In this document: piece after piece, positions 5,883-51,491 of the stretch | Layout of the letters: each line of letters starts with the position of its first letter | Position numbering within the stretch: the first letter of the stretch is position 1 | Source: an uncultured bacterium | GTDB taxonomy: Bacteria > CSSED10-310 > CALFER01 | Assembly: GCA_937951895.1 (NCBI GenBank) | Contig: CALFER010000038.1 | Span: 67,029-131,028 of the forward strand | Length of the DNA: 64,000 bases | Direction of reading: 5' to 3' | Notes under the pieces: model-generated | Databases searched by the model: none | Told to the model about the DNA's origin: nothing | Seen by the model: the letters and a program-made list of their open reading frames with translations, nothing else | Made by a program: the position numbers and the translations under genes

Positions 5883-6440
5883 ATGATTCGATTGATGATG
5901 GTCTGCTCCGTGATCGCTCTGCTCGGTGCCGATACCCAGGCAATGGGCAAGGGAAGAGGAATGGATCGGGAGATGAAAGGCCCCGGAATGCCGTTGTTGA
6001 ATGCGCCCTGGGATCGCGTGGAGGATATCGGCCGCGAGATCGGCCTGTCGACCGAGCAACTCGACAAGATCCAGGCCATCCGGAAGAATCATCGCGAAAA
6101 AGTCGCGCCACTCGAAGCGGAGCGCGATCTTCGCAGGGATGATCTGCACGAAGCGATGCTGGCTCGGAAACAGGCCGATGAGAAGGACATCGTGAAACTC
6201 GTCGATCGATTGAACGAAATCCATGGCATCATCTTCAAGGATTCGGTGCTGTCCTCCTTTCAGATCCGCTCTCTGCTGACCCAGGAGCAGTCGGATGCTC
6301 TGCGGTCGTATCGGGATGATCACCGGGAAGCCCGAAAAGAATGGCGGGAGGACCGGCGGGAACGGAGAGAGGATCGACGGGAGGATCGTCGGCGAGATCG
6401 GATGAGCGAAGACCGTTCTTCGGAAAAAGAGCCTGCCTGA
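5883..6440 (+). CDS. Spy/CpxP-family periplasmic protein (LTXXQ motif) with Arg/Glu/Asp-rich C-terminal tail
   Basis: Signal peptide MIRLMMVCSVIALLGADTQA. LSTEQ and LLTQEQ motifs typical of the LTXXQ (Spy/CpxP/ZraP) family. C-terminus REDRRERREDRREDRRRDR. GGAGGTG precedes the ATG at 5883. The track ORF begins at 5862. Confidence 0.6.
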   Translation: MIRLMMVCSVIALLGADTQAMGKGRGMDREMKGPGMPLLNAPWDRVEDIGREIGLSTEQLDKIQAIRKNHREKVAPLEAERDLRRDDLHEAMLARKQADEKDIVKLVDRLNEIHGIIFKDSVLSSFQIRSLLTQEQSDALRSYRDDHREARKEWREDRRERREDRREDRRRDRMSEDRSSEKEPA

Positions 6441-37918: not shown

Positions 37919-39178
37919 TCAGATAACTCCCGCCTGACTCATTGCAGATGCCTGCGCGTCACCCATCATATGCTCAGTCCGGCATCTCAGACACCGGATA
38001 CGCGGCAGTCTGCACGCGGGCGGCACCTTCAGAGACGCGCCACAATCACATGCGATGTAGCGGTACTGCTTCGATTTCCAGATCGCATCCCGCGTCTCAC
38101 GCGCCCGGTCGATCGACGATTCATCGCCACCTGCCCCGCCTGCGATCGCAGCCGGCAGAATGGCTGATATCTGCGCGAGAGCCGATGCGGGAATCGATGA
38201 GGTTTTCGCTCCGGTCACCTTCCGGAACGCCTGATCATAGGATTGCAGGAATGTCCCTGAAACCCCCGGCCCCGCATTCATCTCCCGCAAGATCCGCACC
38301 CGCTCGGTCACCGGAGGATGCGTGCTGAAAAGCCCCTGGACCGATCGGGTCTTTTCAAGCGGATTGACCACACACATCGGTGCCACGACCCGATTGATCC
38401 TGGGGGACTTCAACACCGAAAGACCGATCTTTTCGAGCGCCCGGGCCAGGCCGTCCGGCAACCGCGTGAACTCGACGGCCGACGCATCCGCCAGATACTC
38501 GCGCTTGCGCGACGCCGCCATGTAGATCAGACGCGCCAGAATCGGCGCCAGTATCATCAACGCCAGCCCGACGACCAGAATAATGATCTGCGCCTGCCCG
38601 CTGTCGGAACTCCGGCTCCGCCGCCGCCCCCCGCCATAAAACAAACTCCTCACCGTAATGTCCGCAATCAGCACGATCGCCCCCATCATCACACCGATCA
38701 TCGTCATGAACAGAATGTCGCGGTTCCGCACATGCGCGATCTCATGCGCCATCACCCCCTGCAACTCATCCCGATCCAGCATGTTGAGGAGACCCGAGGT
38801 GATCGCAACGGCGGCATGAGCAGGATCCCTGCCGATCGAAAAGGCATTGGGCGCCGGATCGTCGATGATGTAGATATCCGGCATCGACGGGAGCATCGAG
38901 GCAATCGTCATTTCCTCGACGACATTGAACAGTTTCGGATGGTCCTCCTTCGAGATCTTCGTGGCTCCGGACACCGCCAGAAAGATTGTCCTGCCCTGGA
39001 AATACGCCACAAGACTCAGGATGATCCACACGACCGCGGCAACGGCGATTCCTGACACGCCCATGCCGGGCCCGACAAGCAACTCACCCGCAAGATAGCC
39101 GATCGCAATTAACAGACCGGCCATCACGACAACAAGTATCGCAGATTTTCTCCGATTGGACTGAATGATCTCCCACAC
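37919..39178 (-). CDS. M48-family zinc metalloprotease (HtpX-like) with C-terminal zinc-ribbon
   Basis: Two N-terminal TM helices. HEIAHVRNRD (HEXXH). Further TMs. C-terminal CDCG...CLRCRTEH Cys4 ribbon. Confidence 0.85.
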   Translation of the reverse strand: MWEIIQSNRRKSAILVVVMAGLLIAIGYLAGELLVGPGMGVSGIAVAAVVWIILSLVAYFQGRTIFLAVSGATKISKEDHPKLFNVVEEMTIASMLPSMPDIYIIDDPAPNAFSIGRDPAHAAVAITSGLLNMLDRDELQGVMAHEIAHVRNRDILFMTMIGVMMGAIVLIADITVRSLFYGGGRRRSRSSDSGQAQIIILVVGLALMILAPILARLIYMAASRKREYLADASAVEFTRLPDGLARALEKIGLSVLKSPRINRVVAPMCVVNPLEKTRSVQGLFSTHPPVTERVRILREMNAGPGVSGTFLQSYDQAFRKVTGAKTSSIPASALAQISAILPAAIAGGAGGDESSIDRARETRDAIWKSKQYRYIACDCGASLKVPPACRLPRIRCLRCRTEHMMGDAQASAMSQAGVI

Positions 39179-39214
39179 GTTCCGAATCCCGTTCTGATGC
39201 CGACCGGAAGCCGA

Positions 39215-39766
39215 TCAGAATGACACTTTCGGAACAGCACGCTCTTCCGGAGTTTCAATCTCGAAGAATTCAGACGCCTTGAAATTGAACATCCCGGCAA
39301 TGATGTTGGTCGGGACCATCTCGATCTTGTTGTTGTACCGCATGGTCGAATCATTATACGCCTGACGGGCGAACGAAATGCGGTTTTCAGTCGAGGTCAG
39401 CTCTTCCTGCAACGCAAGAAAGTTCTGGTTGGCCTTGAGATCCGGGTACGACTCGGCCAGAGCAAACAGTGACTTCAACGTGTTGGTCAGCATGCCCTCT
39501 GCCTTGCCGGATTCCGCCGCACCCTGCGCATTCATGGCCGCGGAACGCGCCTGAACCACCGCCTCCAGCGTTTCCCGCTCATGCTTGACATACCCTTTCA
39601 CGGTCTCGATCAGATTCGGAATGAGATCATGTCGACGCTTGAGCTGCACATCGATTTGCGACCAGGCATTGCGCACCATGTTCCGCGCAGCGACCAGACC
39701 ATTGTAAAGGCCGAAAACCCAGAGAACGATCACCACAAGAACCGCAATAAGAATCAAGAATGGCAT
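39215..39766 (-). CDS. lemA: LemA-family membrane protein
   Basis: [59 protein letters not shown]... is a full-length LemA match. It lies 36 nt upstream of the HtpX-like gene. Confidence 0.9.
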
Positions 39767-39802
39767 AGCGAACCTCCCTTGAGGATGGTTACGACTGACG
39801 CA

Positions 39803-40216
39803 TCATGAACGGTCGGCGCGATCGAGCGCCTCCCCGAGAAACTCGGCGATGGTGCGAACCGGCGCTTCGAGATCGGTTCGGCCGGATCCGAGCGCGACGG
39901 CGATCCGGGACATCTCACCGGCATCGAACCAGACCCCGTCACCGTTCGGACACCGATCGACAATCACGTCACCCGGCATGCTCCGCTTATCCATCAGTTT
40001 CAGGCACAGCGGACAGCGGCGGCGGGCTTCGTGAACGAGAGTCTGAACTTCCATGAAATTCGGCTGCCGAAGTCCTTCCGGCATGCCGGCGTGCTCGAGC
40101 AGCAGACGGATTTCTTCGGCATCGAACCACACTCCCATGCACGTCGGGCAGTAATCGAGTTCAATCCGGTGATACTCGAAGACAACCATGCAAGACTGGC
40201 AGACCGGGCAATCCAT
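39803..40216 (-). CDS. Tandem zinc-ribbon (zf-TFIIB-like) domain protein
   Basis: Two copies of CPxC...Y/RCPxC..GVWFDAxE (CPVCQSCM...YCPTCMGVWFDAEEI; CPLCLKLM...RCPNGDGVWFDAGEM). Confidence 0.6.
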   Translation of the reverse strand: MDCPVCQSCMVVFEYHRIELDYCPTCMGVWFDAEEIRLLLEHAGMPEGLRQPNFMEVQTLVHEARRRCPLCLKLMDKRSMPGDVIVDRCPNGDGVWFDAGEMSRIAVALGSGRTDLEAPVRTIAEFLGEALDRADRS

Positions 40217-40408
40217 AGAGGTAGATTATAAGTCGATCGGCCCTGAAACGCAAACCGATCCACCGATTACACAGATTTGTCGGATTTGGTTGTGCGTTGC
40301 CGGTTCTCATCAGCGTTCTGCATCGCTTCGATGCGATTACAGGAGAATCGCTCAATCGTGCATTTCATGTCCGGCTGTGATAGTCACTCTGTCAGGGGCA
40401 AGGCCATC

Positions 40409-41496
40409 ATGAATCACCTTGATCGCTTTCATGAGATTCTCCGGCACCGTGGAATGCGAAACAGCGCCATTCACGGCATCCGCCGCATGTTGGCATACCG
40501 GAACATCACTCTGTTCGGCCCGGATATGATCCGCATCAACCCGATGAGTGCGATCTGCAACCACCGATGCTCCATGTGCTGGCTCCAGACGATCCCCGAA
40601 GACACCCGGAAAAACCTCATCCGACAAGACCAGCACGAACGGATGAACGCACCGGACTACGACAGGCTTCTCCGGAGCATGCCTGCAGGCCTCCGCGAGG
40701 TCAATGTCGTCGGTGGAGGCGAACCACTCCTCCACCCGGAAATCCACTCGATATTCCGATCGATCAAACGTCGCGGCTACCGCGGAAGTCTCATCACGAA
40801 CGGCACGAATCTGACTCCGGAACTCGCGGAAGACCTGACCAATATCCAATGGGACCATATCCGGATATCTATCAGCGCAGGCGACCGTGACACGTATCAT
40901 CGGGTTCAGGGTGTGGATCGATTCGACCGCCTGATCCGGAACGTTCGCATCCTGAACCGATTCCGATCCACGAAATCCCGTCCGCGCATGCATCTGTCCG
41001 TGTTTCACGTTCTTCAGAGGGACAACATCTCAAATCCATCATTGCTGTTCGGGATTGCCGAGCAATTGGAAGCCGATTTTATTGAATTCGACCCGTTGAT
41101 TCCTCTGAATCCTGATTTGGCGCTGAGTCACGACGAACTGGCAACAGCGATCGAATTGCTGCCGAAAACAGCCGCCCGCTCATCTGTCCCGAGTAATGTT
41201 TCTGAAATAGTATCGAATCTCAGAAAGCAACTCGAAGTCAACGACATCCGGACCGCCTTCATTCCGGCCCGCAGATGCTCGGTCGGATACGATCAATGCT
41301 TCATCCAGCAAACGGCGATGTGTATCCCTGTTGTTTCAGCGATGAAAAGATGGGTAATGTAAAATCTGCATCATTCAGGGAAATCTGGCAGGGGGAGGAG
41401 TTTGAGGCGTTCCGTCGACGCCTGATGAACGGGAAATTCGCGTATTACTGCATCGAGAAACAATGTTCGCTGCCGAGCGTGCTGCTGAACCGTTAG
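40409..41496 (+). pseudogene. Radical SAM/SPASM-domain enzyme interrupted by a +1/-1 frameshift near 41285-41300
   Basis: Frame 1 carries CNHRCSMC (CxxxCxxC) and the radical SAM core up to ...RRCSVG. The SPASM continuation (...HPANGDVYPCCF...GNV...FREIW) is in a different frame (track ORF 41275..41496). Confidence 0.6.
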
Positions 41497-41511: not shown

Positions 41512-41889
41512 TCAGCCGTTGGCAGGAATCTCCTCAACCGGAACGATCAGCCCCGTTCCACGATCGATCGCGTCCAGCGTGAACTCCGATTCGGTCACCC
41601 GAAAGTACACTTCGATCCGACACTCGCCACGGGGGCACGCAGGAAAATCGTGAACCCGATACTCCGCCATTTTGACGCAATCCGACACATCCGACGCGGA
41701 GTCATCCCCGAAATACATGGAAATCCGGATGGTTGTCTGCTGATCTTCCGTCGTGCCGAACATCCGGGTTCTGACCGCTGGAACCCTGTCCCCGCGATGG
41801 TGGATCGGAACAAATTTGGACTCCAGCGCTTCCAGCCCGATCGCCCCTGCCAAACGCCCATTTTCGACCCACAAGGTGCGCAGCTTCAT
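41512..41889 (-). CDS. Hypothetical cytoplasmic protein, last gene of cytochrome/YeeE operon
   Basis: AGGAGGA RBS then ATG at 41889 (MKLRTLWVENGRL...). No recognisable motifs. Confidence 0.45.
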   Translation of the reverse strand: MKLRTLWVENGRLAGAIGLEALESKFVPIHHRGDRVPAVRTRMFGTTEDQQTTIRISMYFGDDSASDVSDCVKMAEYRVHDFPACPRGECRIEVYFRVTESEFTLDAIDRGTGLIVPVEEIPANG

Positions 41890-41966
41890 TAAACTCCTCC
41901 TCGTGCGTTCAATCGTGAGATCTCTGAATTTCAGTGAGTCTATTATACCGCGCGAATCTTTCAGGA

Positions 41967-42605
41967 TCAACCGCACCCACCGGATTTCCGGGCCTGGCTC
42001 TGCGTCTTCACCTTTTTTTCAAACACGCGCGTCCCCTCAAGCTTTACGTCGGGGCGTGACACGGCATGACGCCCCCCCAACGCTGCCGTGAACCGATACG
42101 CGAGCACCTCGTCCCCCGAGCCTCCACCCGTGTCGATCACCTCCCGTTTCACTACCTCCGCCGGATTGCCAAACGCCGCCAGCCAGCCGTTCGCCCCACC
42201 CTCCAGCACATATGCATTCGTGACATGCAGCAGTTTCAACCGTTTCCAAGCCTCAACCGCGTCGGTCTCACCGTTCGACATCACAACGACCACCGCGTTT
42301 GACGGCAGTTCGGACCAGTGAAACCGTTCGAGATCGTCGATGTCACCCCGCACGGCATCCGCCAGATGAAACAGGTTGAAATCGCGTTCGGAACGCACAT
42401 CCAGAATCGTCAGAGTAATCCCGTGATCATACAGAAGCTGCAACAATTCGCCCGGATCGATCAGGATCGAGCGGCTGTCGAGCATCGGCTTGTACTTGGT
42501 CTCCATGCGGCGCCAGCGGGTCTCGAACGACGGTTGCCCCTTCACGATCAATCCCGCCGCAATCAGGCACAACACCAGTGCCATCCACTTCGTCCAATGC
42601 CTCAT
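41967..42605 (-). CDS. Membrane-anchored rhodanese-like domain protein (catalytic Cys apparently replaced by Ser)
   Basis: N-terminal anchor WMALVLCLIAAGLIV. Rhodanese-like core ...ITLTILDVRSERDFNLFHLADAV...AVVVVMSNGETDAVEAW...GGANGWL. The position where rhodaneses carry Cys(R/K)xGx(R/T) reads SNGETD (by-eye alignment). ATGA overlap with the upstream gene. Confidence 0.65.
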   Translation of the reverse strand: MRHWTKWMALVLCLIAAGLIVKGQPSFETRWRRMETKYKPMLDSRSILIDPGELLQLLYDHGITLTILDVRSERDFNLFHLADAVRGDIDDLERFHWSELPSNAVVVVMSNGETDAVEAWKRLKLLHVTNAYVLEGGANGWLAAFGNPAEVVKREVIDTGGGSGDEVLAYRFTAALGGRHAVSRPDVKLEGTRVFEKKVKTQSQARKSGGCG

Positions 42606-43207
42606 GTGCCGGTCTCCTCTTTCTTCGCCAATACCAGCCGATCCCTCACCCATGCCCCTCCGGCAAACATTCCGATAGCCATCACCACGACCATCAGAAC
42701 AACCACGCCGGTATCGAGCCCGAACACATCCATCAGCGTGAGGCGTCCCAGGTAGCTCGAATTGTAAAAATCGGAGAAGGATTCCACGGTTTCACCGAAA
42801 ACGAAGATACCGGTGAATACTCCGAGCACAAAGAAGGCGCCGTCGAGTTTGAGTGTGGCGAGACTGACCAGCGAGGTGCCCGGACAGAAGCCCCCGACGA
42901 TGAATCCGACCCCCATGATGAGCCCGCCTGTGATGCCCGGCCACAGATAGGTCGGGTTCACCCAGATCGCCTCGTAATCGAGCCACCCCAGCGAAACGGC
43001 CCAGAACACGAGTAACATGGCGGTGACGATGGCGGTGAACATGACCTGGAGCACCGCGAGATCCTTGAAGTAGAATTGTCCGGCGAGCTTGCGCGAGTCA
43101 CCGAAGCCGGCCGATTCGAGGATGAAACCGAACGCGAGACCGATCGCGAAATAGATCAGGTTGGCGCCCCACGGGCTCACAAGTTCAGGCAGGTTCAACG
43201 GAAACAT
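42602..43207 (-). CDS. YeeE/YedE-family sulfur-compound transporter half (TsuA/PmpB-like)
   Basis: About 5 TM. Signature GGFCPGTS in a re-entrant loop. Confidence 0.8.
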   Translation of the reverse strand: MFPLNLPELVSPWGANLIYFAIGLAFGFILESAGFGDSRKLAGQFYFKDLAVLQVMFTAIVTAMLLVFWAVSLGWLDYEAIWVNPTYLWPGITGGLIMGVGFIVGGFCPGTSLVSLATLKLDGAFFVLGVFTGIFVFGETVESFSDFYNSSYLGRLTLMDVFGLDTGVVVLMVVVMAIGMFAGGAWVRDRLVLAKKEETGT

Positions 43208-43216
43208 ACCGGCCTC

Positions 43217-43771
43217 CTAGTTCCACGCCTTGCGCAGGAAGTACGCGAGCGCATAAGCGGAGGCGAAAATCGACAGCATGAAGGCCCAGGAACCGGCCGA
43301 CAGAACGCACCCGCCGGACAGCGCCTGCCCGGATGTGCACCCGCGCGCAAGCCTTGCACCATACCCCATGATCGCGCCTCCGAGAAACGCCATTGCCCAT
43401 CGCGTGGATTTGCTGATCCGCGGCCCTTTCCGGGTCTCGATGCGCAGGCGCCGGTGTATCAAACCGGATAAAAATCCGCCGACCAGCGCGCCGAGAATTT
43501 CAATCACAATCCAGTTGTTGAGGGGCTTGCGATCGCCTCCGGCCAGAGTGGCCAGATTCGGCGTTCGATCGACGTACGAGGGAACCACGAGATCCTCGAT
43601 GGCGACGATGACCCGTTGAATGCCTCCCGAAGCCCCCAACCCGTTCCCCGTCAGCAGAAACGATGTAAACAGCAACACACCGAGCGCTGCGCCGGCGATG
43701 TACGAATTCCAGTACACCGGCCGATCAACAGTCGGATCCACATCAGTTTTTCCGATGGCCATCTTCGACAT
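43217..43771 (-). CDS. YeeE/YedE-family sulfur-compound transporter half (TsuA/PmpA-like)
   Basis: Signature RLARGCTSGQALSG. Multiple TM. The start (43771, or the internal ATG at 43762) overlaps the end of the cytochrome b gene. Confidence 0.8.
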   Translation of the reverse strand: MSKMAIGKTDVDPTVDRPVYWNSYIAGAALGVLLFTSFLLTGNGLGASGGIQRVIVAIEDLVVPSYVDRTPNLATLAGGDRKPLNNWIVIEILGALVGGFLSGLIHRRLRIETRKGPRISKSTRWAMAFLGGAIMGYGARLARGCTSGQALSGGCVLSAGSWAFMLSIFASAYALAYFLRKAWN

Positions 43772-44369
43772 CCTCCCATCCGGTAATCATCGCCGTAATG
43801 CTCGACAGCGGCGTATGACCCGTGGTGGTCAAATAGACATGCATGATCACGAATGCACCGAAGAGCCATGCCGCGAGCGTATGCAGCGTTGCAAGCAGCG
43901 CCAGCCCGCCGGCATACTCGATAAGCGACGGCCAGAAATGTGCACTCATCAGTATCAACCCGGTCACAAGTTGAAACGGCAGCAGGACATTCAGAATCGC
44001 CAGATATGTGATCTTCTGCAGAGGATTCAGCTTCCGGTCCGGTGATTTCTCGAATGGGTGCGGATCTCCCCGGAAAATGCCTCCGAGATAAAACACGGCC
44101 TGCCGGATGGATGCCGAGAAGAAATCGCGGGGTTCCGGAATGAACTGCCGGAGCTGGTTGGTGAAGATATGATAGAGCAACCCCAGACCGGCATTGATAA
44201 CGAAAATGAAGCCGAAAGCCACATGAATGCGGGATGCGAGATTGAAGCACATGAGGAGGCGGTTCGGGAGGTGGATCTCGAGTCCCGTGTAGAGCAACAC
44301 GAGAATCACGAACGCCTGCATCCAGTGCCAGGCTCGTTCATGAAACGAATACATGTAGACACGCTTCAT
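43743..44369 (-). CDS. Dihaem b-type cytochrome, prokaryotic cytochrome b561 / Ni-Fe hydrogenase cytochrome-b family
   Basis: 208 aa, four TM helices carrying His pairs (HWMQAFVILVLLYTGLEIH; RIHVAFGFIFVINAGLGLLYHIF; LATLHTLAAWLFGAFVIMHVY). ATGA overlap with the upstream heptaheme gene. Confidence 0.65.
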   Translation of the reverse strand: MKRVYMYSFHERAWHWMQAFVILVLLYTGLEIHLPNRLLMCFNLASRIHVAFGFIFVINAGLGLLYHIFTNQLRQFIPEPRDFFSASIRQAVFYLGGIFRGDPHPFEKSPDRKLNPLQKITYLAILNVLLPFQLVTGLILMSAHFWPSLIEYAGGLALLATLHTLAAWLFGAFVIMHVYLTTTGHTPLSSITAMITGWEDVEDGHRKN

Positions 44370-46219
44370 TGCCGTCTCCTCCGCCCCGTCACGATCCGGG
44401 CGCTGCCATGCACCGCCACTCCGAATACCACGACCGCCATGAAGCCGATCCCGATCCGATTCACCGCGGCATTCCGATCAGCGCCCGGCACATAGAACTC
44501 CGGTGCGTCATCACCCTCCCGGTTCATCCGAGCCACCCATCGGCCGTCCGTTGCACGAACGATCCTTCCGGCATCCCCGATTCCTCCCGTCCTGCGCAGC
44601 GCCGGTTCCGCATCGAACGGAGCGGTCGGCGACACCTCCAGATCGGCATACAGCCGCGACTCCCCGGCATGACATGACACACACTCGCACAACGCGAACT
44701 CGCGACGCATCACACCGTGGTGAATACCGAACGGCTGTGCGTCACCCTCGATGCGCGGGTTCACGACGCCTGCATCGGTCAGGCGCGCCGCGACCCAGTC
44801 CCGTTTGTCCCGTGTATCGAGAATCAACTCCTCATCCGAAAGCACGCCGTCACGGTTCGAGTCGAAGCGTTCGAGCGCTTCAGGGCGGCAGGCAACGCCG
44901 TCATGGAATACGGCGGCAACGATCGCTGGCGACACACGTTGCGGAGGATCACCGGCCGTCCAGAACCAAGTCGTCACGACGTTGAACGGCGCGAGCCGCG
45001 TTCGGGCGTCCTCGTCGAGTCTCGGCCAGAAAACCGGCTGAAACCCGGTCACATGCGCATTGGGATCACCCCATTCTCCCTCGATGCCCCGATACCGCAC
45101 GCCCCCCTTGCCGTCTGCTCCGGCAACCGTCCAATCGATTTCACGCACGGCCGCCATGGGCGATGTCGGGATATGGCACGCCTCACAACTCAATTTCTGA
45201 AAGTGGAGTTCGGGGTAAGGAAGCCACCGGTGCATCGGTCCGGCGTCATGACAGGTCTCACATCGACGCATCGTCACAGGCTCGTTCGAGGGGTCGGCAT
45301 CCATGGACCCGCGGCCCCGGGCAAACTGATGTGACGGCCGGTGGAGATACTCGCTGAAGGACTGCCGTCGCGTATCGAAGCGCAGGTGGAGGGGACGCGT
45401 GGCGGCGATTTCGAGTGAATAAGCCGGGTTATTGAGCGAGAAGTGGCAGTGCGAGCATCGCATGACACGCTCGGCATGCACATCCCAGGGTCGGATCGTC
45501 TGTTCCTTGCTGACCGTGCTGATACCGGAATCGTTGATTCGCTGGCCCGAGAAAATCGAACCGGTGCGCAGGGTCATCGTCAATTCGGCGGGGTTTCCTT
45601 CCGGGATAACGAGCGGGGCGCTTCCCCGGTGCACCAGGCCATGACAGGCACCGCAGTTTTCATCAGTCGGCCCTCTCAACGCGATCCGGTCGATCGGCCA
45701 CCGCCCCTGTTCCGATAGCGCATCCCGTTTCCAGATCCAGGAATCACCTACGCGAGCGACCAGGCCGGTCCGGCCGAGCGATGCCGTGACGGCCCATTCG
45801 AATCGCTCCCGGCGCATCTCACCCATCATCGCTTCACGATCGACCGTCTCGATGTGGCACAGAAAGCAGTTCATTTCGAAACCGAGTTCCCGGGCGGGTC
45901 CGCCGCCGACATGCCGACGGCCGTAAGTCTTGAGCCAATCCGCGTCGAACGGCACGTCGGAACCCGGATCCGGCGATTCGAATTCGTATGCCACCCGTTG
46001 CTGCGGACGCACATGATCGCTGTGGGAGTCGATGTATTCCGTATCATGACACTGTCCGCAAGTTTTCATCGTCGAGACAGGATTATGGGATTCGATGACC
46101 TTATAACCCTCCACGTCCAGCAAATCGAACTCGGGATGAATCCGATTCTGCGACGCGGAGAGGCCATCCCAGCCGAGAATCAATGTGGCGATCGAGACAG
46201 CGATCATACGCATGTTCAT
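44366..46219 (-). CDS. Heptaheme c-type cytochrome with C-terminal membrane anchor
   Basis: Signal peptide. Seven CXXCH motifs (CGQCH, CFLCH, CGACH, CSHCH, CETCH, CEACH, CVSCH). EF-hand/dockerin-like loop DSNRDGVLSDEE. C-terminal hydrophobic helix plus RRRRQ tail. Confidence 0.8.
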   Translation of the reverse strand: MNMRMIAVSIATLILGWDGLSASQNRIHPEFDLLDVEGYKVIESHNPVSTMKTCGQCHDTEYIDSHSDHVRPQQRVAYEFESPDPGSDVPFDADWLKTYGRRHVGGGPARELGFEMNCFLCHIETVDREAMMGEMRRERFEWAVTASLGRTGLVARVGDSWIWKRDALSEQGRWPIDRIALRGPTDENCGACHGLVHRGSAPLVIPEGNPAELTMTLRTGSIFSGQRINDSGISTVSKEQTIRPWDVHAERVMRCSHCHFSLNNPAYSLEIAATRPLHLRFDTRRQSFSEYLHRPSHQFARGRGSMDADPSNEPVTMRRCETCHDAGPMHRWLPYPELHFQKLSCEACHIPTSPMAAVREIDWTVAGADGKGGVRYRGIEGEWGDPNAHVTGFQPVFWPRLDEDARTRLAPFNVVTTWFWTAGDPPQRVSPAIVAAVFHDGVACRPEALERFDSNRDGVLSDEELILDTRDKRDWVAARLTDAGVVNPRIEGDAQPFGIHHGVMRREFALCECVSCHAGESRLYADLEVSPTAPFDAEPALRRTGGIGDAGRIVRATDGRWVARMNREGDDAPEFYVPGADRNAAVNRIGIGFMAVVVFGVAVHGSARIVTGRRRRQ

Positions 46220-47676
46220 CGCCCACCCTCCGATTCCGGAATCAGAATGCCGGTTCGAAGTCTTCCGCCACGAACGGCGGGATCACCGTCATATCCCAGC
46301 GATTCCCAGTTCAGTCGACCTCCCTGCCCGTGGCAATCCTTGCACGCCAATGCCTGTCGGGATGTCACGACCATATGATTGATCGGCCAGAACATTTCCG
46401 TGGACGCAAACCCGAAGGAACCACTGTAGTCCAGTCCGGTGGCCTGACTGCCCAGCCGGGCCGCCTTGTCCCAGTCGAACTCCGTCCAGTAACCCCCCGG
46501 ACCGTACGTTTTCGGAATGATGAAGTAGCGGTTTTTCAGATCGTAGATCTGTTTTCCCCGATGCACTTTAAATGGCCAGATCCGGGCAGTCGCGTCATGA
46601 ATGCTCCCCAGAGGTCGTGCCATCGCGGTCACCCCCTCCGGATCGATGGTCTCACCGAGCAGGTAGTGGTCTGCCGTGCCGTTAAACCAGGCATACTCCG
46701 GTGCGATGTTGACCGCGTACTGAAATTCGCCCTTGATTGCCGTGTATTGATGCGGATCCCCAATGCGTTTCTCGCGCTCCTTGTCCCCCGCCTGCGACCA
46801 GTCCCAGACCATCTTGGTCGCCTCTTCCGGTGCAATTCGAGGAATGTGGCAGGTCTGACAGGCCACTGCCGATCCATGCGCATTGAGTCTCATGTCCTTA
46901 TGCGGCCGGGGCGCATGACACAGCGTGCAATCGAAGCGGTTTTTTGCATCGATGCTGACCGAGATCAAACGGCCGGGAATGAGGTGATTCTTCGTCTGGT
47001 GACAATCGATGCATTCGAGTTTATGTCGTGACATGTGGATATCGATCCGTTCGCGGGGGTTGAGCAGGCTGCCGTCCATGTCGCCATGCTTGACGGCGTC
47101 TCCACCACCGCCGGCAAAATGGCAGTATCCGCAATTCGCGCGTTTCGGATATCCGACACTCCTGGCAACAGCGAGCAGATCCACTTTCGGATCAGGGCGT
47201 CCGGCTCCATTGGGATCTTTGTTGTACGTCGTCGTCCAATCATGGCAGACCAGACAATCCACATTGTCCTGCTTCGAAAAATCGAACGTGTCATCTTCCC
47301 AACCGTATCCCGCATGGCATTGTGTACAGCGAACCCAGTTCGACTGGATGCCGATGCAGTAATTGTTCATGAGATTTTTCTTGCCGATATGGACCGGCTG
47401 GTCATGCCCGGGAGCCAGAACCGCTTCATCACCGACCCAGTTCCAATGAGCGGTTTTCATGAGATCCGAGGCAGCGGATTTGTGACATTCCAGACATGCG
47501 CGGGTGACGGACGAGCCATCCGGAAACGGTTGTGAGAAAAACGTCGAATGATCGGTGTGAGAACGCGGTTTTGGAACTTTGGCGCGTGGGTTGTCGCGGA
47601 TCGCCGATTCGACTTCATCCGAGACCAGGCATAAACATACGAGTAGAGACAGCATCAACTTGAATTTAATGAGCAT
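46216..47676 (-). CDS. Octaheme c-type cytochrome (OTR/HAO-like multiheme family)
   Basis: Signal peptide MLIKFKLMLSLLVCLCLV. Eight CXXCH motifs (CLECH, CTQCH, CLVCH, CGYCH, CIDCH, CTLCH, CQTCH, CKDCH) in about 480 aa. AGGGAG RBS. Start/stop overlaps the heptaheme gene (46216-46219). Confidence 0.8.
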   Translation of the reverse strand: MLIKFKLMLSLLVCLCLVSDEVESAIRDNPRAKVPKPRSHTDHSTFFSQPFPDGSSVTRACLECHKSAASDLMKTAHWNWVGDEAVLAPGHDQPVHIGKKNLMNNYCIGIQSNWVRCTQCHAGYGWEDDTFDFSKQDNVDCLVCHDWTTTYNKDPNGAGRPDPKVDLLAVARSVGYPKRANCGYCHFAGGGGDAVKHGDMDGSLLNPRERIDIHMSRHKLECIDCHQTKNHLIPGRLISVSIDAKNRFDCTLCHAPRPHKDMRLNAHGSAVACQTCHIPRIAPEEATKMVWDWSQAGDKEREKRIGDPHQYTAIKGEFQYAVNIAPEYAWFNGTADHYLLGETIDPEGVTAMARPLGSIHDATARIWPFKVHRGKQIYDLKNRYFIIPKTYGPGGYWTEFDWDKAARLGSQATGLDYSGSFGFASTEMFWPINHMVVTSRQALACKDCHGQGGRLNWESLGYDGDPAVRGGRLRTGILIPESEGGR

Positions 47677-47773
47677 CCCGATACTCCCTGTAAACCGGAT
47701 GGTAAAACACACAAAGCCCCTCTGTCAGATCTCGTTCGCGTGCAAAGGTTACAGAACTCCTGTGACAGGCTCT

Positions 47774-49465
47774 TCAGTTCAGGGAGAAGTCGAATGTCGC
47801 AACGTCACTGATCAACGCATCGATTCCGAGCAATCCCGGGGTGAACAGAGCGGCATAAAAATGCATGGGACCGAATGGGGACACCGCCGGCATGATGAAG
47901 TCTGGAATAATCGTTTTCGAGGAAACCCCTGCCGGGATCGAGATCGTTTCATGCGACAGTCCGTTTCCGATCGCCTGCCACGCGGGATAACTGAAAAACT
48001 GCCCCGCGACATCGAGCAGTACATACAGGTCCGCCGTCATCATCCCTCCCGGATTCTGCATCCCCAGCGTCAATCCGCACGGATCACCTTCACCGAAAGC
48101 CGTCGCCGGCATTTCCAGTTCGATATCGACAAGTCCTCCACCCCCCTGCGGCATCCTGAGACTCATCAGGAACATATCGACAACACCGGGATCGATTCCC
48201 CAATTCTCGGCCCACACCACCCGACTCCCGTCCCGCGTGATCGAGGCATGGGTCTCCTCCCAGTATTCAGCCGTCGTGTTGGGTGTTTTCGCCAGATAAA
48301 CGACTCGGGCGGCGGCGTCGTCGAGCGTCACGAGAACGATCGAGCGATCGAGCCAGTTTTTCTCGGGCAGAAAAGGCTGTATATACGTCGAAACAACGGC
48401 ATATCCCGCGTGATTGCACGAAACATGGACGCCCGATTGAAGTCCGTACGGCGAGCCGAAGTCGTAAAACAGACGGATGAGGGGAGTACGATTCGTCCCC
48501 TCGTAACTGCCTCCCGCTTCGAGGATCGGCTGAGTCGTGAAATCGATCGGGATCATGTCGATGAAATCCGTGTTGATGTTCTGCATGACGATCACCTCAC
48601 GCCCCTGCGCATCGAGTCCGACATCCGAATGCGCCGTCGCGTAATCCAGCCGGTGAAACTGCGTCAGATCGCGTGTCGCCATGACCAATCCCGCGAGAGG
48701 TCCCCCGTTGTTGTAATCGGATCCGATCAGAAGATAGTTGCCGTGCCATGACATGCCGACCCAGTCGATCAACCGTTCGTTTTCCTGAAGCGTGCGCACG
48801 CCGAGTGTCGATGCAGTCAAACGATCCCAGCAGAATACATACAGGGGTTCGTAGTCTTCCTGCACATCGCCCTGCAGCATCAAACCCCAGTACCGCATGT
48901 CGACGGACGGTTCACCCTCGTCTTTGCATGTGATCCGATAGACATTCGATGACGCGATCAGAGGGCCGATGATCGGATCCTGCGTGAAATCCACGATGAT
49001 CGTCAGATCACCGGTCGTCACGTCGAGCGTCACGATGCTGAAATCGCTGAATCCCCACAACAGATTTGCATTGGAGGGGTCCCAGCGCGGCTCGGACAGT
49101 GAGGGTTGGATCACGAGATTCGCGGTTGTATTGAAGGGGATCGAAGCCGTCGAGTAGACGTCCCAGCCATCCGATGGATCGAGCAGAATCCTGGACTGGT
49201 CGACGTTGAACGGATCGAATCGGGAGTATTCATGCCGCGAATGGGAGTAATCGCGCGTGGTGGCCTTGAACAGAATCGTCCCGAAGGACGGCTCGAAATA
49301 CTCGACGCCGGGATCCGGTTCGGCCAGGGGCACGAGCGGATATCTCGGGTTGTTGCCCGACAGGGGATCCGGAACTTCAGTGAACGCATAGTCCGGCGCA
49401 TACTCCAGCGCGAGCGTGACCGGAACAGCGATGAATACAATGCTCAGCACGATTGATCTCATCAT
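47774..49465 (-). CDS. Secreted repeat (probable beta-propeller-type) protein, paralog 3, with conserved C-terminal domain
   Basis: GGAGGA RBS then ATGATG at 49465. Signal peptide MMRSIVLSIVFIAVPVTLA. C-terminal ...DLYVLLDVAGQFFSYPAWQ...MHFYAALFTPGLLGIDALI. Confidence 0.7.
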   Translation of the reverse strand: MMRSIVLSIVFIAVPVTLALEYAPDYAFTEVPDPLSGNNPRYPLVPLAEPDPGVEYFEPSFGTILFKATTRDYSHSRHEYSRFDPFNVDQSRILLDPSDGWDVYSTASIPFNTTANLVIQPSLSEPRWDPSNANLLWGFSDFSIVTLDVTTGDLTIIVDFTQDPIIGPLIASSNVYRITCKDEGEPSVDMRYWGLMLQGDVQEDYEPLYVFCWDRLTASTLGVRTLQENERLIDWVGMSWHGNYLLIGSDYNNGGPLAGLVMATRDLTQFHRLDYATAHSDVGLDAQGREVIVMQNINTDFIDMIPIDFTTQPILEAGGSYEGTNRTPLIRLFYDFGSPYGLQSGVHVSCNHAGYAVVSTYIQPFLPEKNWLDRSIVLVTLDDAAARVVYLAKTPNTTAEYWEETHASITRDGSRVVWAENWGIDPGVVDMFLMSLRMPQGGGGLVDIELEMPATAFGEGDPCGLTLGMQNPGGMMTADLYVLLDVAGQFFSYPAWQAIGNGLSHETISIPAGVSSKTIIPDFIMPAVSPFGPMHFYAALFTPGLLGIDALISDVATFDFSLN

Positions 49466-49610
49466 GCGGGTTTCCTCCATCCTGCCGGCCGATCGGTGAA
49501 TCCGGCCGGGACAATCGGTGTCAATTTCAGTATAATAAAATATGCGGTTCCGAGTCGAACACACCACCGGATCCATTGACATACATTCACACCCCTCAAC
49601 GGAGGAACTC
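49466..49610. promoter_or_regulatory. Divergent intergenic promoter region between paralog 3 and the acid phosphatase gene
   Basis: 145-bp non-coding spacer between divergently oriented genes. Both genes have GGAGGA RBSs at the spacer edges. Confidence 0.3.
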
Positions 49611-50441
49611 ATGAATCATGATTGGACACGGTCGATCGTCATCGCGCTGAGCCTGTGTGTATGCATCCTGCCTCATCCGGCATTCTCGATCGAAACGCCC
49701 TCTCCGACCTCTTCGCCCTTTCCCGACTCCGCGACGCTCAACGCCGTTGCCTGGGTGCAAACTTCGGCGGAATACACAGGCCTGGCGATCGGCGCATTTC
49801 ACCTCGCACAGGAGCGTCTGACAGAAGCGCTCGCGAATCCGGATCGATCCTGGTCGGCGGCTGTGGAGCAACCCACGCCGGACACGGCCCTGCCGCCTGT
49901 GGTGATTGTGGATCTCGACGAGACCCTCCTGGACAACTCGGCGTTTGAAGCGCAGGTGATTATCGATCAGGTTCGCAGAGTTCATATGCAGCGCAAGGAG
50001 TTTGTGGATCTCGGGGGGTCGCGACTCGTTCCGGGCGCACTTGACTTTATCAGATCCACCTTGAACGCAGGGGTCCGGATCGTGGCGATAACGAACCGGC
50101 GTCTTCCGGAGAAGGATCACACGCTCGCCAACCTGATCGCGCTCGGTATCCCGGCCGACGATCCGGCACGTTTCGAGGTGATGTTCCGGAATGATTCCGT
50201 CGGCTGGACACGCGACAAGACGTCGCGGCGCGCGGAGGTTGCCCGAACCCACCGCATCGTGCTCATGATCGGCGATCAGATCGGCGATTTTATATCCGCC
50301 GAGGGACTGGACAATGCGCGGGAGCGTGAGTTGGCCCGGACACATGCTGCCCGCTGGGGGGTGCACTGGATCCTGCTGCCCAATCCGATCTACGGTGACT
50401 GGTCGAGGGATGCGCGGACGTTGATTCGCGGATACAAATAA
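49611..50441 (+). CDS. HAD-superfamily class B acid phosphatase / lipoprotein e(P4)-family 5'-nucleotidase
   Basis: GGAGGA RBS then ATG at 49611. Signal/lipobox-like N-terminus ...ALSLCVCILP. HAD motif I VVIVDLDETLLDN. Motifs III/IV ...ITNR...MIGDQIGDF. Confidence 0.8.
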   Translation: MNHDWTRSIVIALSLCVCILPHPAFSIETPSPTSSPFPDSATLNAVAWVQTSAEYTGLAIGAFHLAQERLTEALANPDRSWSAAVEQPTPDTALPPVVIVDLDETLLDNSAFEAQVIIDQVRRVHMQRKEFVDLGGSRLVPGALDFIRSTLNAGVRIVAITNRRLPEKDHTLANLIALGIPADDPARFEVMFRNDSVGWTRDKTSRRAEVARTHRIVLMIGDQIGDFISAEGLDNARERELARTHAARWGVHWILLPNPIYGDWSRDARTLIRGYK

Positions 50442-50501: not shown

Positions 50502-51491
50502 TCATCCGGCCAGCATGCGATCGATTCGGTACATCCAGCGCCGCGCGACACCCCCATTGAGCATGCACCCTGCCAGTGCATAAAAGGCGGGGTATCCCGA
50601 TTCGGATGTGTGATAGCAGCCGACGCATTCCGGAAGGGAATCGAACGAGACATCCCGGTGAAGTTGCCGGAGTCCACGCATTGTATCGTTGTTCCAGAGT
50701 TCGTCGAGAGAATGTTCGCGAAGAGATCCCAGAGGAAGACGATCGAGCGTGCAGCAGGGAAACACGGTTGCATCCGCTCGAATGTATGCGGGACCATGCC
50801 AGAGAACCGGGCAGGGGCGGCGACGGAGCGAGGACGCGATACTGTTTTCCGGTCGATCCGCGACGGTGCATCTCCGAACTGAGATCCCATCTGGATTCAG
50901 AGATCGAACAAATTTTCGGTACTCGGCGTCCCGGTGATGCATCTCCGGCCATCGGATCATCTGCATCACCACTTTTGTGCCTTTCCCGGCCTCCCGGGCA
51001 GCACCAATCAGTTCGCGACCGGTCCGGACGACATCGTCAAAACGGGCACCCAATCGGTATTTTTCATAGATTTCGGGAATGTGGGAATCCATGGCGATGA
51101 CCAGCAGATCAGGTCCGGCTTCCATGACTGCCTGCGCCGCCAGAGAATAGGGGAAGGCGGCATTCGTGGTAACGTCGGTCGTAATCCCGTGCGACCTGCA
51201 CCGATTGATCGCATCCGGAAGATGGGGCCACAGGAATGGTTCTCCCCATCCGAACAGAAACACCATTTCAACATCGTTCCCGCACCTGTCCAGAATCGAC
51301 AGACACACATCCCGATCCATGTGCATCGGTTGCGTGATGAATTCGGATCGCCTGCAGTTCGGACACCGCAGATTGCAGTGCGACGTCACCTCCAGCAGAA
51401 CTTCCGAGGGACCGACACGCATCTGGTTCGATTGCTTCAACCAGCCGCAAACACGCTCAAAGCGCTGCTTCATTCTGACGGCCGTGTGCAT
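50502..51491 (-). CDS. Radical SAM enzyme with SPASM-like C-terminal domain
   Basis: CNLRCPNC (CxxxCxxC) near the N-terminus. C-terminal Cys-rich ...ATVFPCCTLDRLPLG...ECVGC. Confidence 0.75.
   Translation of the reverse strand: MHTAVRMKQRFERVCGWLKQSNQMRVGPSEVLLEVTSHCNLRCPNCRRSEFITQPMHMDRDVCLSILDRCGNDVEMVFLFGWGEPFLWPHLPDAINRCRSHGITTDVTTNAAFPYSLAAQAVMEAGPDLLVIAMDSHIPEIYEKYRLGARFDDVVRTGRELIGAAREAGKGTKVVMQMIRWPEMHHRDAEYRKFVRSLNPDGISVRRCTVADRPENSIASSLRRRPCPVLWHGPAYIRADATVFPCCTLDRLPLGSLREHSLDELWNNDTMRGLRQLHRDVSFDSLPECVGCYHTSESGYPAFYALAGCMLNGGVARRWMYRIDRMLAG

Follow-up and report, generated by a model that had tools for sequence, protein, structure and literature searches.

This work describes a six-gene operon centred on an octahaem cytochrome c of the octahaem tetrathionate reductase (OTR) family in a 64,000-nucleotide stretch of the genome of an uncultured bacterium (GTDB lineage Bacteria; CSSED10-310; CALFER01), contig CALFER010000038.1. 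The whole stretch is referred to here as the window, and all positions are window coordinates. The operon lies on the minus strand from 47676 to 41967, and its genes are labelled g1 to g6 in operon order, 5' to 3'; g7 denotes the adjacent seventh open reading frame (ORF). The products are two multihaem cytochromes c (g1 and g2), a cytochrome b (g3), two halves of a YeeE-type channel (g4 and g5), and a membrane-anchored rhodanese-fold protein (g6) (Table 1). This gene content had been read from the letters in a first-pass annotation of the same DNA, and it is borne out by the counts of CXXCH motifs and by matches to PF01292, PF04143, and PF00581.

Table 1. Features of the OTR operon and its borders, in window coordinates
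Feature	Position	Strand	Assignment or basis
g1, OTR-family octahaem cytochrome c, 486 amino acids (aa), Sec signal	46216-47676	-	TIGR04315, PF11783, 1SP3
Lys99 codon of g1, equivalent of Lys56 of S. oneidensis OTR	47380-47382	-	Alignment to 1SP3
Cys107 codon of g1, equivalent of Cys64 of 1SP3	47356-47358	-	Alignment to 1SP3
Haem-2 motif C117-T-Q-C-H121 of g1	47314-47328	-	Aligns with C74xxC77H78 of 1SP3
g2, heptahaem cytochrome c, 617 aa, signal peptide and C-terminal transmembrane (TM) anchor	44366-46219	-	Putative divergent OTR-fold paralogue
EF-hand-like loop D453-E464 of g2, DSNRDGVLSDEE	44828-44863	-	Conserved across g2 family
C-terminal TM anchor of g2, ∼residues 585-607, followed by RRRR	44399-44467	-	Hydrophobic segment
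g3, 4-TM dihaem cytochrome b, 208 aa, HyaC/FdnI/PhsC type	43743-44369	-	PF01292
g4, PmpA-like YeeE half, 181 aa (184 aa from alternative start 43771)	43217-43762	-	PF04143
g5, PmpB-like YeeE half, 201 aa, one extra TM helix	42602-43207	-	PF04143
g6, membrane-anchored rhodanese-fold domain, 212 aa	41967-42605	-	PF00581, AF2 model
G209-G210-C211-G212 codons, C-terminal end of g6	41970-41981	-	SoxY-like arm motif
Promoter-like site CTGACA-18-TACCAT	47699-47728	-	9/12 consensus match, just upstream of g1
Promoter-like site TTGATC-17-TATAAT	41970-41942	-	Within 77-nucleotide gap between g6 and g7
g7, stand-alone 125-aa protein resembling Hsp70 substrate-binding domain	41512-41889	-	PF00012, E = 8e-9

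The six genes are tightly packed. A common ATGA joins g1 to g2 (46216-46219), g2 to g3 (44366-44369), and g5 to g6 (42602-42605). The overlap of g3 and g4 measures 20 nucleotides (nt) if g4 starts at the ATG at 43762 and 29 nt if it starts at the first ATG, at 43771; the former has the better Shine-Dalgarno spacing and is also the start in public gene calls. Only 9 nt separate g4 from g5, with an AGGAGG sequence spanning the g4 stop codon, and a GGAG-type ribosome-binding site precedes each of the six genes. All four junctions listed in the first-pass annotation hold, the one at 43743-43771 provided that g4 starts at the ATG at 43771.

The first-pass annotation had treated the octahaem protein as unrecognised and had set Otr systems aside as organised differently, but g1 is clearly an OTR. 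It scores 572 bits against TIGR04315 (cut-off, 375) over profile positions 1 to 440 of 440, matches the PF11783 domain in a Pfam search, and aligns with the Shewanella OTR (PDB entry 1SP3) over residues 43 to 467 with E = 2e-151 and ∼57% identity. Its eight CXXCH motifs, beginning at C61, C117, C141, C182, C222, C250, C273, and C445, are all invariant. In S. oneidensis OTR, Lys56 is the unusual distal ligand of catalytic haem 2, the motif of which is numbered C74xxC77H78 (PMC3769277). The equivalents of Lys56 and of Cys64 in g1 (K99 and C107) and the haem-2 motif are kept in at least 97% of 86 OTRs. With these residues in place and Lys ligation predicted, g1 is, as judged by alignment, an OTR with an unchanged active site; it would serve as the catalytic subunit, with a putative tetrathionate (or nitrite/hydroxylamine) reductase activity. 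The resemblance to the S. oneidensis enzyme (SO_4144) covers the full-length alignment, the eight CXXCH motifs, the Lys56 and Cys64 equivalents, and the PF11783 domain. The difference from this model OTR lies in the partner genes and the subclade, not in the catalytic subunit.

Comparison of both cytochromes with known families, as proposed in the first-pass annotation, gave a clear answer for g1 (OTR) and only sub-threshold matches for g2. Neither protein matched the NrfA, ONR, HAO, or MccA families in Pfam or NCBIfam (E ≤ 0.01), so that NrfA, HAO, and MccA were ruled out as identities of g1. All haem motifs of g1 and g2 are of the CXXCH type, and neither the CXXCK of NrfA/ONR nor the CX15CH of MccA is among them.

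The heptahaem protein g2 appears to be a relative of its catalytic neighbour. An alignment of 51 family members shows every one of the seven CXXCH motifs to be invariant. It also shows nine additional periplasmic His residues, invariant or almost so, that could act as second haem ligands, and no conserved Lys that might ligate a haem; this pattern fits a pure electron-transfer protein. An AlphaFold2 (AF2) model of g2, with a predicted local distance difference test score (pLDDT) of 72.7 and a pTM of 0.69, was compared with the PDB by Foldseek. The only match below E = 1e-3 was 1SP3 (E = 3.9e-7; probability, 1.0; template-modelling [TM] score, 0.44 normalised to the target). Because the model is only of this confidence, we take the match as moderate evidence, and we propose that g2 is a divergent seven-haem OTR-fold paralogue acting as an electron-transfer subunit. 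The family comprises 609 representatives at 50% identity (E ≤ 1e-3).

Other identities were considered for g2. Its profile matches are weak: 57.9 bits to TIGR04314 (MmcA), far from the membership cut-off of 250, 25 bits to TIGR04315, and similarly weak matches to MtrC/DmsE-type domains. With these sub-threshold matches, no PDB sequence match, and a fold match to OTR alone, assignments to MmcA, DmsE/MtrA, or HmcA were rejected. MmcA, from the Rnf complex of Methanosarcina, is nevertheless instructive, as it is likewise a seven-haem OTR relative and an apparent conduit attached to a membrane complex. However, g2 is bacterial, has a cytochrome b and an OTR as partners rather than Rnf, and carries a C-terminal TM anchor and an EF-hand-like loop; no rnf genes were found in the window cluster or in the related loci examined. 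The anchor and the loop, both picked out in the first-pass annotation, are present as described. The loop is conserved in the 51 sequences, with D453 in 49, G458 in 45, and E464 in 49 of them, and with D, N, or S at positions 455 and 457. The anchor helix continues directly into a fused cytochrome b in most relatives. Near its cytoplasmic end, His604 and Arg608 are invariant in 51/51 family members; these residues could contribute to a quinone site or to the b-haem environment.

The cytochrome b, g3, scores 83.5 bits against PF01292 (gathering threshold, 30.1). It has four TM helices, with four His residues on TM1, TM2, and TM4 as expected, two of them on TM4. These residues (His15, His49, His163, and His177) are 100% conserved in 60 sequences, with His163 and His177 14 residues apart. 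FdnI, HyaC, and PhsC likewise have four TM helices and four His residues that include a pair 14 residues apart on one helix, and the partner of FdnI or HyaC is, as here, an electron-transfer subunit with a single C-terminal TM helix. The combination of such an anchor helix with a PF01292 cytochrome b is the architecture of formate dehydrogenase-N (Fdn-N) and [NiFe]-hydrogenase. In contrast to Fdn-N, hydrogenase, and PhsABC, the partner of g3 is a multihaem cytochrome c and not an Fe-S protein, and a catalytic subunit with molybdopterin or NiFe is absent. Although PhsC is the best NCBIfam match of g3 (NF011582), its 118 bits fall below the cut-off of 204, no PhsA (molybdopterin) or PhsB gene is adjacent, and g3 stays below every equivalog cut-off tried in NCBIfam. 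Neither a molybdopterin nor a 4Fe-4S subunit is encoded in the operon or its immediate flanks, which sets the system apart from Psr, Phs, and Ttr and agrees with the earlier description of a purely haem-based system free of molybdopterin and sirohaem subunits. We propose that g3 is the quinone-interacting subunit.

The next two genes each encode half of a PF04143 protein: g4 covers profile positions 177 to 308, the C-terminal half of YeeE, and g5 covers positions 11 to 161, the N-terminal half, with five hydrophobic segments. Each half has a Cys residue that is 100% conserved among homologues, namely, Cys145 in the RGCTSGQ motif of g4 and Cys108 in the GGFCPGTS motif of g5. They are the equivalents of YeeE Cys293, located on the periplasmic side (PMC11582611, PMC7449682), and Cys91, respectively, the essential residues to which the Cys residues of PmpA and PmpB also correspond (PMC11582611). 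Loop charges in 54 to 58 homologues fit an N-out topology for g5 and an N-in/C-in topology for g4. Together, the two proteins would make up the antiparallel halves of a YeeE-type sulfur channel.

Full-length YeeE/TsuA proteins are defined by a length of ∼330 to 350 aa, nine TM helices, and three conserved Cys residues. The window instead has two genes with one conserved Cys each, and the TsuA equivalog models give 40 and 31 bits against cut-offs of 400 and 645. With matching halves and the two invariant Cys residues, g4 and g5 correspond to a PmpA/PmpB-type pair. The split YeeE/YedE transporter of the first-pass annotation therefore stands as two PF04143 halves but not as a novelty, since the PmpA/PmpB arrangement has already been described (PMC11582611). 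The window pair does depart from it in several respects. PmpA and PmpB are ∼130 aa long (PMC11582611), and both g4 and g5 are longer; g5 has an extra TM helix and is fused to its partner in most genomes; and the pair is embedded in a cytochrome operon. In YeeE/TsuA-TsuB and PmpA/PmpB(/PmpC), as here, a gene for a Cys-bearing sulfur carrier adjoins the channel genes. However, the partner in the present case is not a cytoplasmic TusA-like protein but g6, a predicted periplasmic rhodanese fold with a C-terminal Cys.

The only Pfam match of g6 is to PF00581 (38 bits; threshold, 22), and its AF2 model (pLDDT, 88) has Foldseek TM-scores of ∼0.7 to small single-domain rhodaneses, including Sud (1QXN). 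The active-site position is occupied by Ser in the window and by Ser, Gly, Asp, or Ala across 57 homologues, never by Cys, and the loop has a conserved xSN[DG]E motif. Because the catalytic Cys of the CX5R/T loop is absent in all 57 homologues, g6 should not be filed as an active rhodanese. The first-pass label of a Cys-less rhodanese-like protein, correct about the replacement of the catalytic Cys by Ser, does not extend to function, as it overlooked a conserved C-terminal GGCG. The C terminus reads GGCG, GGCGG, GGCS, or GGCA in 55/57 homologues, and the GGCG motif is invariant in a second, independent alignment. A VKV-like basic stretch precedes this Gly-Gly-Cys-Gly(-Gly) tail, which is presumably flexible, given a pLDDT of ∼55 in the model. 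The loop motif, Cys-less throughout the family, and the GGCG tail rule out a degenerate rhodanese pseudo-domain.

SoxY carries sulfur intermediates on a C-terminal GGCGG "swinging arm." The tail of g6 resembles this arm at the motif level only: g6 has a rhodanese fold and no SoxY Pfam match, and no SoxZ-like gene is present in the cluster. A second point of comparison is the Sud-Psr system of Wolinella succinogenes, in which a periplasmic rhodanese-fold protein likewise stands beside a periplasmic sulfur reductase (for g6, this placement is predicted). Sud, however, has the canonical active-site Cys and serves a molybdoenzyme, whereas g6 lacks that Cys and would serve a haem enzyme. In the YeeE structure, the Cys loops of the N-terminal half face the cytoplasm, and the topology is inverted by helix H7 (PMC7449682). 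Natural g5-g6 fusions have six hydrophobic segments before the rhodanese domain. Given the additional helix in g5, the anchor helix in g6, the loop charges, and the YeeE topology, the g6 domain and its arm are predicted to lie in the periplasm, the same compartment as OTR and g2.

Conservation of the gene order was surveyed in one genome per species. A scan with an OTR alignment as the query found 545 relatives, and the best 80 of these (49 to 60% identity) were retrieved with their surroundings; such OTR loci of other genomes are designated L001, etc. The best 80 loci come from at least 12 phyla, including Chloroflexota, Planctomycetota, Gammaproteobacteria, Myxococcota, Gemmatimonadota, Eisenbacteria, Latescibacterota, Spirochaetota, Bacteroidota, Verrucomicrobiota, Actinomycetota, and Marinimicrobia. 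Synteny was counted at the 52 OTR loci with at least 5.5 kb of downstream sequence. The two YeeE halves and the rhodanese gene follow in the same order at 45 of the 52, and the heptahaem protein and cytochrome b are also present in at least 40 of those 45. The remaining loci are six solitary OTRs and one OTR accompanied only by g2 and g3. The synteny search envisaged in the first-pass annotation thus found the YeeE and rhodanese genes conserved beside the cytochromes, which supports its suggestion that these sulfur-handling genes point to a sulfur substrate.

Gene fusions are frequent in this cassette. The counterparts of g2 and g3 are fused at 43 of 58 loci and those of g5 and g6 at 46 of 55, so that the commonest form has four genes, with haem7-cytochrome b and YeeE half-rhodanese fusions. 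The fully split form is a minority; the six-gene version is kept in relatives at 90% (L001) and 60% (L005) identity. In two Gammaproteobacteria (L016, 9950-12835; L017, 9923-12874), OTR and the heptahaem protein form a 15-haem fusion, with no cytochrome b. In a member of the Kiritimatiellae (L053, 9908-13207), OTR, a 4-haem remnant, and cytochrome b form a single polypeptide. Natural fusions argue strongly for a physical complex of the cassette proteins. The claim of a single functional unit, which had been made from the start/stop overlaps, gains from both the order kept at 45/52 loci and the fusions of g2 with g3, g5 with g6, and sometimes g1 with g2 (and g3).

A neighbour-joining tree of OTRs, built without bootstrapping, places S. 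oneidensis OTR among the solitary OTRs of Desulfuromonadales/Geobacteraceae, Nitrospirota, and Chloroherpeton, apart from all cassette-type OTRs, which come with the heptahaem protein, cytochrome b, YeeE halves, and rhodanese instead. The only solitary OTR nested inside the cassette clade is that of L043. Five alignment columns discriminate cassette from solitary OTRs (three residue positions and a two-residue indel). Clade-specific differences in the active site were ruled out, as none of these columns affects the catalytic Lys, the Cys, or a haem motif. Since the catalytic residues are alike in both clades, the same class of chemistry is expected, with a different electron supply and substrate handling.

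The surroundings of OTR genes vary. In Shewanella, otr has as its neighbour SO_4142, a gene listed (PMC5789149) as encoding a monohaem cytochrome c of the periplasm. At three solitary loci of Desulfuromonadales/Geobacteraceae (L077, 1746-4136; L078, 7384-9190; L085, 2366-4216), a coiled-coil-rich protein of 450 to 616 aa is encoded upstream, and at two of the three (L077 and L078), small monohaem cytochromes c also precede OTR. This context differs from the cassette and may resemble that of Shewanella. A gene for an ArsR-family regulator (∼110 aa, PF01022) lies upstream of OTR at 32 loci, including L007, L018, L022, L025 to L027, and L032. It is directly upstream and on the same strand at 30 of the 32, and the only Cys of its product is in the sequence HAGVCQALGDP. 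In other systems, sulfane sulfur is sensed by repressors of the ArsR type. A distant relative, L008, has a thioredoxin gene upstream of the cassette (6031-6369) and a gene for a YgaP-like TM protein (PF11127) downstream (12886-13092); both families are linked to thiol and sulfur handling. Neither an ArsR regulator nor a thioredoxin was retained as a cassette member in the window, where the ArsR gene of the 32 other loci is absent. Just upstream of the cassette in L007 (1374-5914), a second, larger Cytochrome_cB-domain protein (766 aa) is encoded together with NrfC-like and NrfD-like proteins, which would give that genome an alternative quinol-dehydrogenase module to serve an OTR-like cytochrome.

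The combination of genes had been described in the first-pass annotation as matching no characterised complex, and a limited literature search agrees with this for the whole assembly: no published description of the full cassette, of a heptahaem OTR partner, or of a GGCG-tailed Cys-less rhodanese was found in it. Parts of the system are known already, namely, the OTR catalytic family, the PmpAB split, and, once, the pair of OTR and cytochrome b. The last was noted in the genome paper on Thermosulfurimonas dismutans, in which OTR was proposed to be tied to the membrane by an adjacent cytochrome b (TDIS_1882/1883; PMC4911364). A heptahaem domain, YeeE halves, and a rhodanese go unmentioned there, and nothing comparative is claimed.

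With moderate confidence, we propose that the products of the six genes form a single haem-only respiratory module bound to the membrane, with an OTR-type protein as its catalytic subunit, in which quinol drives the reduction of an S-S bond and sulfur is imported. Quinol would be oxidised at the cytochrome b, and electrons would pass through the two b haems of g3 and the seven c haems of g2 to OTR in the periplasm, which would cleave the S-S bond reductively. The substrate would most likely be tetrathionate, either free or bound to the arm of g6 as a Cys-S-thiosulfonate; a persulfide or a polythionate would be alternatives. Tethered to the PmpB-like half of the channel, g6 would use its Cys-tipped tail to present sulfur species to OTR, to pass the product to the channel, or both, and the PmpAB-like channel would carry thiosulfate or sulfane sulfur into the cytoplasm.

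Several published observations speak for such a scheme. In vitro, tetrathionate is reduced by OTR (Mowat 2004, as cited in later work). Cys-S-thiosulfonates form when protein thiols react with tetrathionate (PMC4175335), and for this reason the g6 arm could capture tetrathionate and present it to OTR. In lucinid symbionts, otr adjoins a divergent soxY/soxZ pair (soxY-S3) (PMC11237559), and periplasmic carriers have been proposed to hand sulfur to the YeeE-like SoxT (PMC11582611). A more specific form of the proposal is that the cassette forms a hitherto unrecognised sulfur relay from periplasm to cytoplasm, that OTR in it acts on a sulfur intermediate held covalently on the g6 arm instead of a free anion, that the same arm then feeds the channel, and that this is the physiological role across more than 10 phyla. 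We put this forward only tentatively and hold it to be clearly less probable than the general scheme.

Other points count against the proposed scheme. In known enzymes, PF01292 cytochromes b run either way, and for cassette-type members both the substrate and the way in which electrons flow are inferred only. The substrate does not follow from membership in the family, because S. oneidensis OTR also reduces nitrite and hydroxylamine (Atkinson 2007, as cited in later work). Within the cassette, no cytoplasmic TusA/TsuB-like acceptor is encoded. The model of g2, as noted above, is only moderately confident. The periplasmic placement of g6 derives from homology to the YeeE topology and from charge counts, and the stretch after its anchor is charge neutral. 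Finally, the g6 loop is acidic (SN[DG]E), unlike the cationic thiosulfate-binding loop of active rhodaneses.

The same components could operate in the opposite direction, which we judge unlikely. OTR would then oxidise reduced sulfur in the periplasm (sulfide or sulfane sulfur to an arm persulfide, or sulfite) or conjugate thiosulfate to the arm in the manner of SoxXA; electrons would travel via g2 to cytochrome b, where quinone would be reduced on the cytoplasmic side in a proton-motive redox loop of the Fdn-N type, again with import of sulfur. PF01292 cytochromes b with a TM-anchored partner are indeed quinone reductases in formate dehydrogenase-N and hydrogenase, and g3 matches those quinone-reducing families in NCBIfam as well, although its best match there is PhsC, a subunit of a reductase. 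Arms of the SoxY type are known from oxidative pathways. The thiosulfate/tetrathionate couple, at ∼+198 mV, is too positive for menaquinone, at -74 mV; for this reason, oxidation is plausible for sulfide, sulfane sulfur, or sulfite but not for thiosulfate with menaquinone. SoxT, which is YeeE-like, imports sulfur for oxidation (PMC11582611), and the ArsR gene found upstream of OTR at 32 loci recalls SoxR and sHdrR of sulfur oxidisers, which are described as ArsR-type repressors (PMC12423496). Against this stand the host lineages, many of which (Anaerolineae, Planctomycetota) are not known sulfur oxidisers, and the absence of any oxidative OTR activity from the literature consulted on OTR.

Two further explanations give the channel and the carrier no part in catalysis, and we regard them as less probable still. 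In one, quite improbable in our estimation, OTR is a nitrite or hydroxylamine (or NO) reductase for ammonification or detoxification, and the YeeE and rhodanese genes have a separate, co-regulated purpose. The in vitro reduction of nitrite and hydroxylamine by the S. oneidensis enzyme (Atkinson 2007, as cited in later work), the frequent listing of otr as a candidate nitrite reductase in genome papers, and the Lys-ligated catalytic haem shared with NrfA-type enzymes all agree with this assignment. However, it leaves the channel halves and the Cys-tipped rhodanese directly downstream at 45/52 loci unexplained, no nitrogen-cycle genes recur among the OTR neighbours, and the conserved Cys107 next to the haem fits sulfur chemistry better. 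The other, which we consider very improbable, has the cytochromes as a general electron conduit, either of the MmcA kind or one that delivers electrons outside the cell to metals, humics, or electrodes, instead of an enzyme acting on a soluble substrate. A heptahaem OTR-fold protein like MmcA, 15 c haems and two b haems in series, and the weak matches to MtrC/DmsE-type domains would suit such a conduit, but g1 retains the complete catalytic site (Lys ligand, Cys, and haem 2) that is absent from MmcA according to a preprint. No porin, outer-membrane cytochrome, or rnf genes are adjacent, and the sulfur channel and carrier would again be left without explanation.

The limits of the operon differ from those first assigned. 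A chain of seven start/stop-overlapping genes had been described; the junctions confirm it for six, and the seventh does not belong to it. The g7 ORF, at 41512-41976, overlaps g6 only when read from a GTG start at 41976, whereas the ATG at 41889, preceded by a GGAGGAG ribosome-binding site and chosen in public gene calls, leaves a 77-nt gap after g6. Because this gap contains a promoter-like site of its own and g7 homologues occur only in near relatives (L001, L002, and L090 to L092), g7 was ruled out as an operon member and the operon is taken to consist of six genes. The promoter-like site just upstream of g1 is sensibly positioned, yet such sites are no commoner in the region than in shuffled sequence. 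Directly upstream of the operon, at 47774-49612 on the minus strand, lies an ORF for a 612-aa protein with an N-terminal TM or signal segment; having no Pfam or NCBIfam match and not being a recurrent OTR neighbour, it was likewise ruled out as an operon member.

A radical SAM/SPASM gene at 40322-41496 on the plus strand is convergent with the operon. Compared with its intact 392-aa orthologue in L001, it is frameshifted near 41308-41329, so that it is a pseudogene unless the assembly is in error at this point. Another gene of the radical SAM/SPASM type occupies 50502-51491 on the minus strand, and L007 also has one near its OTR cluster. Downstream of the operon, a trio of genes for an M48 peptidase, LemA, and a zinc-ribbon protein (37919-40216, minus strand) is also conserved in L001 and L090; it seems unremarkable and unconnected with the operon. 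No tRNA or rRNA was found in the 64-kb window.

OTR has been known structurally since 2004, while its natural role has stayed unsettled; in metagenomic studies, otr is scored by itself as an indicator of tetrathionate or nitrite reduction. Among the OTRs close to the window enzyme, the majority are not solitary: they are accompanied by a quinone-linked haem wire of their own, a channel for sulfur, and a carrier tipped with Cys. The cassette clade is set apart from the Shewanella/Geobacter clade that underlies current annotation. In g6, the cassette also offers a new example of a SoxY-type arm on an unrelated fold. The cassette is apparently a widespread, uncharacterised OTR module, of which the window holds an ordinary member in the less common unfused form. 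Because cassette OTRs come with a sulfur channel and a Cys-tipped carrier, their company suggests that the natural role of OTR lies in sulfur chemistry.

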